64,000 nucleotides of DNA, from contig JAXSPP010000007.1 in NCBI GenBank assembly GCA_037927135.1, positions 1 to 64,000 of the forward strand. The letters are read 5' to 3'. Origin of the DNA: Candidatus Pampinifervens sinense (GTDB taxonomy: Bacteria; Aquificota; Aquificia; Aquificales; Aquificaceae). The translations under genes and the position numbers were made by a program. The notes beneath the pieces were generated by a model. It searched no databases and had not been told where the DNA came from. It saw nothing but the letters and a program-made list of their open reading frames with translations. Below are positions 48,534 through 58,735 of the stretch, one piece after another. Position 1 is the stretch's first letter, and each line of letters begins with the position of its first letter.

Positions 48534-49382
48534 ATGGACTTTTTAGGAAAAGAACAATCACCCTTAACCTTTGAAGAGTGGAACCAGCTGGAGAAGGCTA
48601 TAATTGAAGTTGCGAAAAAAACGCTTGTATGTAGAAGGTTTATGCCCGTTGTTGGCCCAATAGGTGTGGGCCATCAGGTAATATCTTATGATGTTTACCT
48701 TGGTGTGGAGCCAGGTGTATGTGAAGTAAGACCTGGGGAGGAAAGCGAACAGTGTGAGCCTGTAAGGACTGGAAGAAGAAGGCATATAGTCCTTCCAACC
48801 ATATACAAGCCCTTTAGTATAAGCTGGAGGGATTTAGAATACTACAGGCAGTTCAACCTTCCCATAGATACATCTCAAGCTGCTGCGGCAGCCTTTGCCA
48901 CAGCGGTGGCGGAGGACACTCTCATAATACATGGAAATCAAAAGCTGGAGATAGAGGGCCTTTTGACGGTGGAGGGAAGGCAAAGTATGTCCATGAGCGA
49001 TTGGGATGTGGTGGGCAATGCCTTCAACGATATATCCCTCGGTATAGCCAAGCTTTCGGAAAAGGGCTTTTACGGAGACTACTACCTTATACTAAACCCA
49101 AAGGACTACTTTAAGCTAAACAGGGTATATCACAACACGGGCCTTTTGGAGATTGAACAGATAAGAAAGCTTGTAAAGGATATATACTACACGCCCATAA
49201 TGCCAGAATCAAAGGCATTGCTTGTATCGGCAGGACCACAGAATATGGACATAGTCATAGGCCTGGACTTTAGCCTTGCCTATGTGGAATCTACCAACAT
49301 GGTGCATCACTTTAGGGTTATGGAGATAGTGGCACCGAGGATAAAGAGGCCTGGGGCCATACTGGTGATAGGGGAGAAGTGA
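48534..49382 (+). CDS. Family 1 encapsulin nanocompartment shell (linocin M18 family)
   Basis: MDFL....PL..EEW..L...A...L..RRF....GP.G N-terminus; IYK.F...WRDLE, A..ED..I..G, GLL; 282 aa; AGGAGGTG RBS. Confidence 0.9.
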   Translation: MDFLGKEQSPLTFEEWNQLEKAIIEVAKKTLVCRRFMPVVGPIGVGHQVISYDVYLGVEPGVCEVRPGEESEQCEPVRTGRRRHIVLPTIYKPFSISWRDLEYYRQFNLPIDTSQAAAAAFATAVAEDTLIIHGNQKLEIEGLLTVEGRQSMSMSDWDVVGNAFNDISLGIAKLSEKGFYGDYYLILNPKDYFKLNRVYHNTGLLEIEQIRKLVKDIYYTPIMPESKALLVSAGPQNMDIVIGLDFSLAYVESTNMVHHFRVMEIVAPRIKRPGAILVIGEK

Positions 49383-51226
49383 AGGAAAAGTGGAAGGTAA
49401 TAGAAAGGCTACTTTCTGAAGAGTATGATATTGAGGTACAGGGAAGTTATGAGGGGTGGGGTGCGGGCTACGACCCTAAGTTTTTACCCCTTACGGAGAT
49501 GTGGGCAAAGGGGGAGGTGGAGGATGTGCCGGAGGTGGTAAAGAGGCCAGCGGGGGTGGTCTTTCATATACAAGAGCTTTCAAAAAAATCGGAAGAGGAG
49601 GCCATAAACACCATAAGGCATGAGATTGAATATCTCTTTTCCACAGACCTTTATCTTTGGAGGCTTGGCCAGAGAGAGTTTTACAAGTTTGGCTTTACCC
49701 CCACCTCCTTCCTTGTGCTTTACTCTGTGCTTGAGTCCATAAAGACAGACTCAAGGATAATAAACAGCCATCCTCAAAACCAGTCAACAATCATAAAAAA
49801 CTACGAAGAGATTCTAAAAGAGATAGACACCTACTATCCACATCACAATTTTTCCCTTAGCCTTTTGAAGTCATGGCTTGGAAGGGAAGCCCTTCCCAAA
49901 GATACGGAAAGGATACTCTATGAATACTTGAACTCAAAAAACAGAGAAGCCTACGACATACTTATGGAAGACCTGCTTGGAAAGTATATAGCCCATATAG
50001 AAAAGGCACAAGAGATAAACTATATAGACCTCCTTTTGGATGAGGCGAGGGGAAAGGTAAGAAAGGATGCCCACAAGGGCAGGATAATGACGGACCTTCT
50101 CAAAAAGCTTCCAAAGGCTTTGCAAGAGGTCATAATAGAACACAAGGAAAAGAGGGCTATAGATATACCGGAGGAGAAGAGGAAGGAAATAATAAAGAGC
50201 CTGAGGAACATGCCCGACTGGATGAGGGACTACTTAAAACAGATGTCCTACTTGGATATGATAGAAAGGGATGTGGAGTTTATAAGGCACTTTTTGCCAA
50301 AGACCTTGGAGGTGGATATAGAGCATAGGGGTTTCCTTAGCTTTTTGATAAAGGGGTGGGAGGAACAAAAGAGCACAGCTTCCAGCGGTTTGAGCCTTGG
50401 GGGAAGGTCCGAAGAGAAGTCTCAAGAGGACAGGCTGTATGAAAAGGCCTACGGGATGAACAAGGAGGAGTTTAAGGCCTACAGGAGGATGATATCAAAC
50501 ATATTGCCCTATGTGGAGGCACTAAAGAGAAGGCTTAGAAAGCTAATGCCTGAGGAGGAGGAAGGCTGGTCTGGAAAATACTTTTATGGAAGAAGGCTTA
50601 ACCACAAAGTCCTAAGCTTGGAGGCTTCCATAGGAAGGGGGAGGATGTACATGAGGAGGGAAGAAGGCATAAGAAAGGAGCTTGCCTTTAAGCTTCTCAT
50701 AGATATATCCACATCCATGAAGAGGGAGGAGAAGATAAGGAAGGCTATAGAGGCCCTTCTTTTGTTCTCTGAAGTCATAAGCACTCTGAGGATGCCCTTT
50801 TCCATTGATGTGTTTAGCGACAGGGTGTTTAGATTGAAGGAATTCCATGAAGATTACAAGCTTGTAAGGTGGAGGATTTTGGAGCTTTTTAACATGCTTG
50901 GTGGCGGAACAAACCTTGAAAAGGCCCTCCTTTACGCATATGAAGATATACAAACCTTTTGTAAGAAGAACAACATAAGAGGCTGTATCCTTGTCTTCTC
51001 CGATGGTGAGCCCACAAGGGGCCTAAAAGGAAAAGAGCTAAAGGACCTTATAAACCAGATAAAGGCCATCACACCCATAATAGGCATAGGTGTAGGACTA
51101 GAAAAGAACTATGTGGATTACTACTTTGAAGGCACTGGGATAAAGATAAAGGATGTGTCTGAGCTTACCTTAGCCTTTACAAGGATAATAGAAAATCAGG
51201 CAAGGAGGCTTCTGGCCTTTCAATAA
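49379..51226 (+). CDS. VWA-domain protein (NorD/CbbO/CobT-like architecture)
   Basis: C-terminal MIDAS: DISTS, GGTN, SDGEP; GTGA overlap with the encapsulin stop. Confidence 0.85.
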   Translation: MKEKWKVIERLLSEEYDIEVQGSYEGWGAGYDPKFLPLTEMWAKGEVEDVPEVVKRPAGVVFHIQELSKKSEEEAINTIRHEIEYLFSTDLYLWRLGQREFYKFGFTPTSFLVLYSVLESIKTDSRIINSHPQNQSTIIKNYEEILKEIDTYYPHHNFSLSLLKSWLGREALPKDTERILYEYLNSKNREAYDILMEDLLGKYIAHIEKAQEINYIDLLLDEARGKVRKDAHKGRIMTDLLKKLPKALQEVIIEHKEKRAIDIPEEKRKEIIKSLRNMPDWMRDYLKQMSYLDMIERDVEFIRHFLPKTLEVDIEHRGFLSFLIKGWEEQKSTASSGLSLGGRSEEKSQEDRLYEKAYGMNKEEFKAYRRMISNILPYVEALKRRLRKLMPEEEEGWSGKYFYGRRLNHKVLSLEASIGRGRMYMRREEGIRKELAFKLLIDISTSMKREEKIRKAIEALLLFSEVISTLRMPFSIDVFSDRVFRLKEFHEDYKLVRWRILELFNMLGGGTNLEKALLYAYEDIQTFCKKNNIRGCILVFSDGEPTRGLKGKELKDLINQIKAITPIIGIGVGLEKNYVDYYFEGTGIKIKDVSELTLAFTRIIENQARRLLAFQ

Positions 51227-56002: not shown

Positions 56003-57220
56003 TCAGGCTCCAAACTTAGCAAGCCTAAGAGAATGGGCAAGCATGAGGTTTATCAGCTTTTTGGCTGGAAAGATGCCAAGCTCACCCTTCAAACACTCCC
56101 TTTCTGTAAACCTTTCAGATGTTCCACCAAGCACATAGGGAGAGTGCAAAAGCACGGGCACAGGATGCCAAGAGTGTCCCTTTAAAACAGAGGGTGTAGA
56201 GTGGTCCCCCGTTATCACAAGCACATCAGGCCTCAGGTCCAATATCTGTGGAAGGTTCTTATCAAACTCCTCTATAACCTTTATCTTACCTTCGTAGTTT
56301 CCATCCTCTCCGTAAGAATCTGTCTTCTTTATGTGAAGGAAGAAAAAGTCATAGTCCTTCCACACCTCTTTTAGAGCCTTTATCTCATCCTCTATGCTTT
56401 GTCCTTCAAAGCTGATTAGGTCCATGCCTACAAGGCTTGCAAGGCCTTTATACATAGGGTATACCGCTATGGCGCAGGCTTTTAGACCAAATCTCTCCTC
56501 AAAGCTTTCCATCTTTGGCTTTTGAGAAAAGCCCCTAAGGAGCATGTAGTTGGCTTTATCTTCATCCTTCAGCACCTCTTCAACCCTCTCTAAAAGCCTT
56601 CTTACCACCTTTGCCACCCTTTCGGAAGCCTCCGTCTCACCCCTTGGCTCTATAGGTTCCAGCCCTTCCTTCTGCGGGTCCGTATCCCTTATCCTGTCGC
56701 TACCTTCTGGAAGTTCCTCTGGAAATCTAAGGAGTATGGCAACCCTGTGCTCCATACCCGGCGCAAAAAAGACCTTAACCCCGTCTATCTCCTTTATCTT
56801 TTCGGATAGCCTTGATGTTATCCTTCTGTTTTCTTCTGTGGGTATCCTTCCGGCCCTTCTGTCCTTTACTACAAGCCTTCCGTTTAGTCTTTCTACTGTG
56901 GCATAGTTGGCCCTTATGGCTATATCGGTGGACTTCACTTCTAGCCCAAGGCCCAGAGCCTCAAGTATGCCCCTTCCTATTTGGTACTTCAAAGGGTCAT
57001 AGCCAAAGAGGGCAAGATGCCCCGGCCCACTGCCGGGAGTTATGCCATAATCTACAGGGATATGGAGGCCAAGGGCAGACCTTTTTGCCAAGCTATCAAG
57101 GTTTGGCGTGCTTGCAAGCTCAAGCTCCGTTTTTCCATCCTTTACAGGAAGACCACCTATGCCATCAAGCACAATAAGTAAAAGCTTTGTATTGTTCTTT
57201 TGAACCAGGGCCTCAAGCAT
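56003..57220 (-). CDS. apgM: 2,3-BPG-independent phosphoglycerate mutase, archaeal type
   Basis: [45 protein letters not shown]. Confidence 0.92.
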
Positions 57221-57238: not shown

Positions 57239-58648
57239 TTATGGCCCTATCTGCCTTAAGAAAGGTGGTATTTCCTCCGTCTTTAGCCATCCACACTCTT
57301 CCAAAGCCCTCTCTACGGACTCTCTTGACAGCCTTGTCCTCTCCATCAAAAGCTTTACAAACTCTTCCCTCCTACCTTTAAAGCCCTCTATCTCTTCATA
57401 GCTCACCTCTGGGAATCTGGATACTATCCTATCCTTTACTATGTTCCAAGCTGCAAGGTTGGAGTATAGGTTAAACTCCTTATTTCTGACTGTTTCTTTC
57501 ACCGTTAAAGATTTGAGGAATTCAATCCTCTCTGGCCTTATGGTTAAAATGGCCTCTGCCATAAGCGGGTCCACCGTATAGAAAATGCCAAAGAGCTTTC
57601 CAAGTATCCTCCTTTGAGTTCTTATCATCTGGTCCAGTATGTCCTGCACCTCTGGTTCCACCTTATCGTATATGAGCTCAAAGTAGTTTAGCTCTTCTAG
57701 TTCTAGGCCTCCTAGGTACCTTATAAAGTTGGCAAGCTCATGATAGCTTACAGATTCTCCTTTTATCTCTTCCTTTACCACTTCCTTTTTAGCTTCTCCG
57801 TAGTCAAGGACCACATCTGTGTGTATGGGTGGTATTATGTGGTAGGTTTCCGACTCCCATCCAGCCTTTCTAAGGATCTGCTCTGCCGCATCCATAGTGA
57901 TGTTATACTTCTGCATAAGAAGCCTCTTTAGACCTTCCCTGTCCTTTTTGTATTTGTCCAATTCTTCGTCCGGTATATCCACTTCCACATATACAAGCTT
58001 TTCTTTTCCATCCTCCACAAGGATGACATTCTTTCTACCCTTTATATGCCTCTTTATAAAGCTCCAATCCTCATCGGTCATTATAGGCTCTGGATGCCAC
58101 TCTTTGGACATTTCCTCTTCAAGCTCAAGGTATGGCACGCTCTCATACCACGTGGCTTTGTTTAGCTTAGACTCTATCACCTCTTCACTTTCTCCAAGCC
58201 TGTCTTTTACATACTCTATAAACTCTCTTCTTTTGAACTTAAACTTCTCTATCTCATCTAAGCTAAGCTCTGGAAAGAGGACCTTCAGCTTATACTTTAT
58301 AAAATCCCAGTTTCCAAAGAGGTTTTGTGGCTCAAGGGCTTCATAGCCATAGGGGTTTGTCCTCAAAAACTCAAAGTAATAGCCTATGAACTTCCTCACC
58401 CTTGGGTCTGTCAGCGCCAAGGTTTTTATAAAATCTGGGTCATAGAACTCTATTATGCTAAGTAGCCTTGCTATGTTTACCTTTTTAATGTTGTGAAGAT
58501 GGCAGAGCTCTACAGCATACTTTTTGGGTATATTATCTACACCGCAGTATTCGTTGAGCACGTCCATCTCCGACTTTAAAAGGCTTCTAAAGAAGGAAAG
58601 CTTTTCCCTTTTGGATAGGTTTTCTTTCATAAGGAGCACGCCCAACAT
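57239..58648 (-). CDS. Hypothetical multidomain protein: two ferritin-like (EncFtn/Flp-like) and three CsbD-like repeats
   Basis: Long ORF with GGGAGGTG RBS; internal repeats; domain resemblance judged by eye. Confidence 0.65.
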   Translation of the reverse strand: MLGVLLMKENLSKREKLSFFRSLLKSEMDVLNEYCGVDNIPKKYAVELCHLHNIKKVNIARLLSIIEFYDPDFIKTLALTDPRVRKFIGYYFEFLRTNPYGYEALEPQNLFGNWDFIKYKLKVLFPELSLDEIEKFKFKRREFIEYVKDRLGESEEVIESKLNKATWYESVPYLELEEEMSKEWHPEPIMTDEDWSFIKRHIKGRKNVILVEDGKEKLVYVEVDIPDEELDKYKKDREGLKRLLMQKYNITMDAAEQILRKAGWESETYHIIPPIHTDVVLDYGEAKKEVVKEEIKGESVSYHELANFIRYLGGLELEELNYFELIYDKVEPEVQDILDQMIRTQRRILGKLFGIFYTVDPLMAEAILTIRPERIEFLKSLTVKETVRNKEFNLYSNLAAWNIVKDRIVSRFPEVSYEEIEGFKGRREEFVKLLMERTRLSRESVERALEECGWLKTEEIPPFLRQIGP

Positions 58649-58735
58649 CCTTCTCACCTCCCTTACCTTTTAAGTTATGATCTTAAGTTTTCAAGACAAT
58701 AAAAGTTTCTTATGAGGCTATAATAACTTAGTGTT

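Follow-up and report, generated by a model that had tools for sequence, protein, structure and literature searches.

Encapsulated ferritins (EncFtn) are a classic cargo family of encapsulins, and their iron centre is shared between chains. According to He et al. (2016, PMC5012862), two chains of R. rubrum EncFtn contribute Glu32, Glu62, His65 and Tyr39 to the centre, the EncFtn dimer is treated as the equivalent of a ferritin bundle, metal-free assembly is favoured once the Glu charges are removed, and ferritins are proposed to descend from a duplicated EncFtn-like hairpin. A bacterioferritin (Bfr)-type cargo is reported for Aquificae (Andreas & Giessen 2021, PMC8346489) and modelled in a 2024 review (PMC11202242), and SDGSLGIGSLKRS is given as the targeting-peptide consensus of family-1 cargo (PMC8346489). 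Here, we analyzed a gene on the minus strand (57239..58648) of a 64,000-nucleotide stretch of Candidatus Pampinifervens sinense contig JAXSPP010000007.1 (the window), whose product combines two hairpin segments (A) and three further helical segments (B) in the order A-B-B-A-B. The product is probably a soluble, non-enzymatic protein in which a single-chain pseudo-ferritin core carries three CsbD-like domains, and not a targeted encapsulin cargo.

Repeat architecture and family relationships

The minus-strand open reading frame (ORF) spans 57239..58657. Translation from the ATG at 58648, the start taken in a preliminary description of the window, yields a 469 amino acid (aa) product whose N-terminus agrees with those of its homologues, and a Shine-Dalgarno sequence, GGGAGGTGA, lies 7 nucleotides (nt) upstream. 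The protein is predicted to be soluble (55.9 kDa, isoelectric point 5.35), with no hydrophobic span (top 19-residue Kyte-Doolittle mean of 1.5). Its features are as follows.

57239..58648, minus strand: whole gene, 469 codons plus stop (57239-57241)
58349..58627, minus strand: A1, residues 8-100, putative EncFtn-like helical hairpin plus two short helices, net charge +4
58133..58336, minus strand: B1, residues 105-172, putative divergent CsbD-like domain, NLFGNW...IKYKLK..FPELS.DEI..FKFKR.EF
57845..58093, minus strand: B2, residues 186-268, putative CsbD-like domain interrupted by a beta-hairpin insert (residues 204-223)
57494..57757, minus strand: A2, residues 298-385, putative and more degenerate EncFtn-like hairpin, net charge -6
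57263..57475, minus strand: B3, residues 392-462, putative divergent CsbD-like domain
57242..57277, minus strand: C-terminal tail EEIPPFLRQIGP, residues 458-469, near-invariant

Self-BLASTP did not show the internal repeats, and profiles were needed to detect them. When segments taken from a 40-sequence family alignment were compared by hhalign, B1 matched B3 (probability 99.0%, E 2.4e-18), B2 matched B3 (97.1%, E 6.6e-11) and B1 matched B2 (90.1%, E 1.6e-6). A1 matched A2 with a probability of 36.2% (E 3.7e-4, 81 columns), or 13.6% (E 0.002, 78 columns) when rerun on locus-derived alignments, and all six A-versus-B pairs remained at or below 5.1%. The A1 and A2 sets also aligned end to end in MAFFT with three gap stretches only (1, 3 and 2 columns), sharing two invariant positions (R21/R310 and D70/D360) and four near-invariant ones (E27/E316, L31/L320, N32/N321 and P71/P361). 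These comparisons show the A-B-B-A-B repeat architecture that had been proposed from the sequence; the motifs quoted in that proposal are present in the protein at the residues given for them, and its beta-hairpin insert in B2 is seen as two strands (204-212 and 215-223) in an AlphaFold2 model.

The B segments were assessed against a CsbD profile built from 40 short PF05532 proteins reached from P0103, a two-CsbD protein (Pfam E 1.2e-19) whose phmmer match spans residues 85-162 of the A-B-B-A-B protein. By hhalign, B1 (probability 90.2%, E 1.5e-6, 56 ungapped columns), B3 (94.8%, E 5.5e-8, 52 columns) and the C-terminal half of B2 after the hairpin insert (71.9%, E 3.4e-5, 37 columns) all matched this profile, and the A1 control gave 0.2%. 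The profiles were also tried on a background of 5,447 sequences from outside the family, which pooled ORFs of the genome, members of the other family and shuffled and reversed decoys; 105 of 120 CsbD sequences exceeded the best decoy with the B1 profile and 119 of 120 with the B3 profile. YjbJ (1ryk) was the second PDB sequence match of the B1 profile, albeit a weak one (E 0.24, 52 ungapped columns). Each B unit has four short helices in the whole-protein AlphaFold2 model; 1ryk is absent from the structure lists of this model, which the ferritin-like core fills, and an ESM Atlas feature search with B1 gave no usable match. Together, the profile-profile matches and the phmmer link to P0103 confirm the CsbD likeness claimed in the preliminary description and identify the three B segments, as judged from sequence profiles, as very divergent CsbD-like domains. 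Canonical CsbD genes over the cut-off were found in none of 178 Aquificota genomes by a six-frame PF05532 search.

Within the C-terminal tail, P461, G468 and P469 are invariant and F463, R465 and I467 are at least 90% conserved, and its ending was found in no other ORF of the genome. The tail resembles the extensions after B1 (ATWYESVPYL) and B2 (AGWESETYHIIPPI), and would therefore be part of the B repeat unit rather than a targeting peptide. The terminal FLRQIGP was considered as a docking peptide and set aside, given the similar G-W...(I/V)-P extensions after B1 and B2.

A model of A1 alone (predicted local distance difference test, pLDDT, of 85.7) contained helices at residues 13-35, 42-69, 73-80 and 82-97, giving the predicted long antiparallel helix pair and short C-terminal helix of the EncFtn fold; A2 helices were placed at 302-329 and 332-359 in the whole-protein model. 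Foldseek matched the A1 model to P. furiosus EncFtn 5n5e (probability 0.99, TM 0.63-0.66 over 81 columns), NE0167 3k6c (0.97), EncB 7s5c (0.93), R. rubrum EncFtn 6suw (0.89) and EncC (0.84), and the sole non-EncFtn protein with a probability of at least 0.75 was B. subtilis PadR (5x13, 0.92; 5x12, 0.91). Local matching of the whole model again found 5n5e (0.97) and M. xanthus EncB 7s5k (0.98, root-mean-square deviation (rmsd) of 1.2 over 63 columns), in a list consisting mostly of long-helix noise such as exportins and receptors. At the sequence level, a joint A1+A2 profile searched against 177,635 PDB sequences with hmmsearch gave 5n5e as its top match (E 0.0029), followed by 2e0z, the P. furiosus encapsulin fused to EncFtn (0.01), EncB (0.04 and 0.093), EncC (0.078) and NE0167 (0.43), so that six EncFtn-family sequences were among its 14 best matches; neither A profile singly found EncFtn among the PDB sequences. 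The joint profile also ranked 95 of 120 EncFtn sequences above the best of the 5,447 decoys (25.6 versus 10.8 bits), compared to 25 of 120 for A1 alone. The EncFtn likeness asserted in the preliminary description is thus borne out by Foldseek of A1, the joint-profile search and the decoy ranking, with hhalign not significant, and the A segments are very probably real, if very distant, relatives of EncFtn. A six-frame search of the genome with the EncFtn-like Pfam model PF22277 (E of at most 1) returned a double-ferritin gene on contig C5 only (16.7 bits), and not the A-B-B-A-B gene. Canonical EncFtn genes are rare among Aquificota, with 3 of 178 genomes carrying one. One such gene, in another Aquificota family (L054:914-2109), encodes a 95-aa EncFtn-like protein with an intact EEKTH and no targeting peptide, and is flanked on one side by a ferritin-like ORF and on the other by a small ORF, possibly a superoxide reductase.

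A word-indexed search of 5.8 billion proteins identified 90 homologues (E of at most 0.001, 50-93% identical, mostly 458-486 aa), from sources named as Aquificaceae, Hydrogenobacter, Thermocrinis, Hydrogenivirga and Aquifex (e.g., aq_1545 and Thal_0605). All are named 'hypothetical' and none carries a Pfam domain, and it is in this sense that the word 'unannotated' of the preliminary description applies. Scanned at full length against Pfam and NCBIfam, the protein yielded noise below threshold (ANTAR, UBA_HYPK, Sublancin, TIGR00264) and a weak NF007748 row (E 0.17) over B1. A phmmer search of 1.84 billion representatives returned 14 matches, namely 13 family members or fragments and P0103 (E 7.8e-4). 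We found the gene in 63 of 90 Aquificaceae genomes, among them 44 of the 57 that are of high quality, and in 9 of 12 genera; the 88 genomes from the four remaining families of the phylum lack it. The A-module profile likewise matched nothing in those 88 genomes, and found two copies per gene in the same 63 genomes where the gene was assembled whole. It is a real, constrained and conserved gene restricted to Aquificaceae. A contig labelled as an Acidobacteria metagenome-assembled genome (L012) carries a 78% identical copy in the gene order of Aquificaceae loci (FliL-FlgG-NMO-exonuclease-A-B-B-A-B gene-iPGM-MqnC-ComM) and probably belongs to Aquificaceae, having been mis-binned. Two genomes have an orthologue that is split or interrupted by an in-frame stop (one TAA, one TAG; G058:C18:12954-13928 plus G058:C12:44030-44482, and G078:C9:59859-61059), and these may be pseudogenes or assembly errors. 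Literature searches found no papers on aq_1545, Thal_0605 or HTH_0605 and nothing on CsbD together with encapsulin, the words 'tandem', 'Aquif' and 'CsbD' are absent from the available text of a 2024 EncFtn review, and we could not find a precedent for this architecture in print.

Predicted single-chain bundle and iron site

The whole-protein AlphaFold2 model (pLDDT 75.4, predicted template modelling score (pTM) of 0.59) was compared by VIA-align with Foldseek's best 1,000 chains, which yielded almost only ferritin-like proteins. A search independent of Foldseek, over 48,161 representative chains, gave a similar picture, with nearly all of the top 50 being ferritin-like (Z 9.6-13.6). The best bundle match was 2fzf (Z 13.6-14.0, 137-138 residues aligned; rmsd 3.8 over 137), and the mini-bacterioferritin 9qq4 superposed with an rmsd of 2.2 over 118 residues; further matches included 3hiu, the Dps-like 8w1d, 2qqy and 1vjx and, by class, bacterioferritins, Dps, Mn catalases, nigerythrin and symerythrin. 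The alignments of the top 50 covered 118-144 residues spread over model residues 1-386. As this range needs the helices of both A1 and A2, the two modules are predicted to pair in the manner of an EncFtn dimer. In the model, A1 and A2 pack as one up-down-down-up ferritin-like four-helix bundle within a single chain, and B1 and B2 are predicted to occupy the place of the ferritin crossover loop.

The residue equivalences between the A modules and EncFtn agreed across all hhalign and hmmsearch alignment paths. The EncFtn stretch A-E-L-D-A-I-N-L-Y-E corresponds to S-E27-M-D-V-L-N-E-Y34-C in A1 and L-E316-L-E-E-L-N-Y-F-E in A2, so that A1 keeps E27-M-D-V-L-N32-E-Y34 and A2 keeps E316-L-E-E-L-N321-Y-F, and the closing L-D-(P) is found as Y-D70-P and V-D360-P, respectively. 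The position of E-E-K-T-H is taken by I54-K55-K56-V57-N58 in A1 and T344-Q345-R346-R347-I348 in A2. At the position of Glu62, A1 invariably has Lys and A2 has Gln, Lys or His (residue 345); at that of His65, A1 invariably has Asn and A2 has Ile. Among 40 sequences, no variation is seen at K55, K56, N58 or E316, and the conservation of E27 and R346 is at least 90%. Of the ferritin-like set E, ExxH, E, ExxH, only two Glu are left (2 of 6 canonical ligands). The alignments therefore confirm, at sequence level, that the ferroxidase ligands (ExxH) have been lost in both A modules, as read in the preliminary description (helix-1 Glu kept, EEKxH replaced by IKKVN and TQRRI). With the helix-2 Glu and His replaced in both halves, iron oxidation by a canonical centre is unlikely, and the earlier proposal of a non-catalytic ferritin fold is a reasonable one given this replacement and the EncFtn likeness.

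A cluster of residues near the A1 hairpin loop (C35, E47, C49 and H50) is at least 90% conserved at each position and may form a disulfide or serve as an additional metal site. C35/Y34 lie at 58541-58546 and E47-H50 at 58499-58510 of the window (minus strand). E47-x-x-H50 was considered as a surviving ExxH and ruled out, since it aligns near the hairpin loop and all paths place the ferroxidase position at K55-N58. In the two most divergent homologues (P0085 and P0088), both cysteines and E47 have been lost together, and P0011 has Asn at position 50.

Encapsulin, its cargo and the gene neighbourhood

An encapsulin shell gene is also present in the window.

48534..49382, plus strand: family-1 encapsulin shell gene, Linocin_M18 E 1.5e-71, 7.9 kb from the A-B-B-A-B gene

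The encapsulin's true cargo is likely a 296-aa double ferritin-like protein encoded on another contig of the same genome (G000:C5:136056-136946, plus strand), which ends NRLTVGDLRKRDA and carries the targeting peptide LTVGDLRKRDA. Its homologues (L018:5028-5597, L019:3-896, L022:18305-19168, L025:8035-8898, L026:13878-14762 and L045:4726-5601) carry Ferritin and Rubrerythrin Pfam domains and end LSVGDLRKRD, FTVGDLRKR or LTVGSLFKKK, giving a local pattern of [LF][TS]VG[SD]L. It corresponds to the Bfr-type cargo of Aquificae in PMC8346489 and PMC11202242. The cargo gene is unlinked to the shell gene in this genome and lies directly downstream of it in one other genus. Genome-wide regular expressions for the canonical targeting-peptide pattern returned no ORF and missed this cargo too, because its Asp breaks the pattern; it was located by tblastn from the neighbour at L019.

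The A-B-B-A-B protein has no C-terminal targeting peptide, as its C-terminus is EEIPPFLRQIGP. The preliminary description had suggested that it might be an unlinked cargo of the encapsulin and that SLTVKE after the second A domain weakly recalls LTVGSL; neither suggestion was supported. The internal LTV linker is variable (LTVKETVR, LVTKTGVR, LSVKTTIK) and modelled with low confidence; the G-[SD]-L core that the local cargo peptides share is missing from it, and it shows no co-variation with them. The shell is found in 85, the cargo in 83 and the A-B-B-A-B gene in 63 of the 90 Aquificaceae genomes: shell and cargo are present without the gene in the complete genome G035 and in the 99%-complete G084, G086 and G087, and the gene is present without a shell match in G052 (94% complete).

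At 11 of 50 loci, from three genera, no more than 10 kb separates the gene from a shell or cargo gene. The gene adjoins encapsulin and cargo, in a divergent arrangement, in one genus (L018, L019 and L048), lies 3.3 kb from the shell gene at L024 and 3.9-6.9 kb from the cargo gene at L022, L025, L026 and L045, and is about 8 kb from encapsulin in its own genus (the window, L004, L013 and L047), with different housekeeping genes intervening in each arrangement. Among nine single-contig genomes carrying the gene, a shell or cargo gene lies within 10 kb in two (G050, 8 kb; G038, 5.5 kb) and the nearest is 84-572 kb away in the other seven; proximity in fragmented assemblies is biased, because only near pairs share a contig. 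We read the recurrent proximity as the remains of an ancestral cluster, which fits an EncFtn origin of the A modules. As a sign of a present-day functional link between the protein and encapsulin, it is suggestive but weak. Complex predictions of encapsulin (27-row alignment) with residues 376-469 scored 0.36, 0.00 and 0.00 against a mark of 0.32, and we base no claim on them.

Downstream of the encapsulin gene, and overlapping its stop by 4 nt, is a gene for a 615-aa protein with a C-terminal vWA domain (49379-51226, plus strand). A 38% identical homologue at L019 (7360-9159, minus strand) lies about 4 kb from the A-B-B-A-B gene and about 5.6 kb from encapsulin, in a gene order that otherwise differs from that of the window. 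The iPGM gene begins 18 bp downstream of the A-B-B-A-B gene; no minus-strand terminator-like site was found between the two, and a promoter and terminator scan found no more sites than in shuffles. Hot-spring metatranscriptome contigs were 100% identical to 57275-57753, the 3' half of the gene, and to parts of iPGM (including 56206-56753), which makes transcription possible, as is DNA carry-over in such libraries. Two deeper raw-read RNA runs from the same study (X2 and X3) gave no reads in the 3% sampled.

Interpretation and comparison with described systems

In the explanation that we favour, the A1 and A2 hairpins, about 200 residues apart, would fold back into the antiparallel four-helix bundle known from the EncFtn dimer, where it surrounds the di-iron centre. 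That iron site is largely gone, with the helix-1 Glu alone remaining in each half (E27 and E316), and the bundle may be kept together without metal by the new Lys/Arg side chains and by the opposite net charges of A1 (+4) and A2 (-6). The CsbD-like domains would be attached to this core, B1 and B2 within the crossover and B3 at the C-terminal end, each followed by its conserved G-W...(I/V)-P tail. An encapsulated ferritin of the Aquificaceae encapsulin locus is the most likely ancestor of the A modules, and the protein would now act as a stress or iron-homeostasis accessory rather than as a targeted cargo; its most likely function, we infer, is that of a non-catalytic scaffold of relevance to stress or iron homeostasis.

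Several results weigh against this explanation. hhalign comparisons with an EncFtn profile (35-sequence alignment) were not significant (A1, E 0.12; A2, E 0.13 over a collinear path of 47 columns; joint, 0.068; probability below 1%), VIA geometry placed EncFtn at Z 7.1-7.6 over 73-76 residues of A1, tied with unrelated hairpins (best 8.0), the A2 profile alone placed none of 120 EncFtn sequences above the best decoy, and PF22277 (gathering score 27 bits) gave no row for the protein at a maximum E of 10. These same results speak for the A modules being generic hairpins with a convergent likeness to EncFtn, in a three-CsbD stress protein with a private helical core. We judge this to be quite unlikely, given that EncFtn came first by three independent methods (hmmsearch on PDB, decoy ranking and Foldseek 3Di+AA), that the shared positions are EncFtn hallmarks (R21/R310, E-x-D-x-x-N-x-Y, K56/R346 and the closing D-P, also found in P. 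furiosus EncFtn) and that A1 and A2 are predicted to pair as EncFtn dimers do. Beyond homology, Foldseek E-values were all at least 0.35 for the A1 model and all above 0.3 with the whole model included, Z scores of 12-14 are borderline, since helical bundles in general can reach them, the packing of A1 against A2 was predicted in a single AlphaFold2 run (pTM 0.59), and the bundle could instead be formed between two chains. PF05532 (gathering score 40 bits) gave no row for the protein, and the CsbD domains provide no biochemical anchor for the proposed role. Lastly, E47, C49, H50 and C35 could bind metal, which leaves 'non-catalytic' unproven.

This last point leads to a protein that binds metal at a mononuclear or redox-sensing site, through E27 and E316 or through E47-x-C49-H50 and C35, and acts as an iron or redox sensor rather than as an inert scaffold. 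The conservation of E27, E47, C35, C49 and H50 (each at least 90%) and the invariance of E316 are compatible with such a site, ferritin-like folds tolerate many site variants, and a site is under less pressure to be symmetric once the two halves are joined, as noted by He et al. (2016, PMC5012862). A sensor is nonetheless unlikely, as P0085 and P0088 are without both cysteines and E47, P0011 has replaced H50, E47 and H50 align off the ferroxidase position, and neither half has ExxH there. Entry into, or docking onto, the encapsulin through a non-canonical signal, as a second cargo or a double-ferritin adaptor, draws on the EncFtn-like A modules, EncFtn being a classic cargo family, and on the varied arrangements, at 11 of 50 loci, in which a shell or cargo gene lies no more than 10 kb away. 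We regard it as improbable in view of the missing C-terminal targeting peptide, which local cargo does have ([LF][TS]VG[SD]L), the variable internal LTV motif lacking Gly, the wider distribution of encapsulin (85 versus 63 of 90 genomes, with G035, G084, G086 and G087 devoid of the gene), the 84-572 kb separation in seven of nine single-contig genomes and the bias of proximity in fragmented assemblies. About equally improbable is a metal-free pseudo-EncFtn that replays the hairpin duplication and docks, through its dead ferritin core, on the double-ferritin cargo or the shell, with its three CsbD modules coupling iron storage or release to a stress signal. If true, a pseudo-EncFtn working with the encapsulin iron store would be the first mechanistic context for the CsbD domain, and an independent natural replay of the hairpin duplication from which, as He et al. 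propose, the ferritin fold arose.

The single-chain pseudo-ferritin that we prefer has a bearing on several fields. It puts names to both modules of a clade-specific hypothetical protein that most Aquificaceae have, Aquifex aeolicus (aq_1545) among them. For ferritin evolution, it would be a candidate natural case of two EncFtn halves fused into one bundle with a decayed active site; for encapsulin biology, it may be an accessory factor of the little-studied systems with Bfr-like cargo in thermophiles; and for CsbD, it offers a structured, thermostable, three-copy context for partner searches.

Compared to described systems, the A modules resemble EncFtn (PF22277; R. rubrum Rru_A0973 5da5, P. 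furiosus 5n5e, M. xanthus EncB/EncC) in their long antiparallel helix pair and short third helix, the helix-1 motif E-[LM]-D-x-x-N-x-Y with a conserved Arg six residues ahead of its Glu, the conserved Lys of helix 2, the closing (L/Y)-D-P and the pairing of hairpins into a ferritin-like four-helix bundle, which here is predicted. They differ in that both hairpins are held in one chain, about 200 residues apart, and fused to CsbD-like domains, in a protein that lacks the ExxH ligands in both hairpins and the targeting peptide and falls below the Pfam threshold. With single-chain ferritin-like di-iron proteins (bacterioferritin, Dps and rubrerythrin-type; 2fzf, 2qqy, 1vjx and 9qq4) the protein shares the predicted succession of A-B hairpin, crossover and C-D hairpin (VIA Z 12-14 over about 120-137 residues), but its crossover is a 200-residue insert with two folded domains. 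The Bfr-like double four-helix-bundle cargo of Aquificae (PMC8346489, PMC11202242) belongs to the same organisms and the ferritin superfamily, and its gene lies within 10 kb of the A-B-B-A-B gene in several genomes; unlike the A-B-B-A-B protein, it contains intact Pfam domains (ferritin and rubrerythrin) and ends in a targeting peptide. Finally, the B segments share with CsbD/YjbJ (PF05532; E. coli YjbJ, 1ryk) a helical unit of about 55 residues in which G-x-W is followed by a K-rich helix, a hydrophobic-x-L-[ST]-x-[DE]-[DE]-[IL] turn and R/K-x-x-[LF], ungapped over 52-56 columns. CsbD/YjbJ is free-standing, with about 70 aa and a WGKLTDDD core, whereas the B segments are three copies inside 469 aa with FPE[LV]S.[DE]E in place of that core, a beta-hairpin insert in B2 and an added G-W...(I/V)-P tail on each copy.

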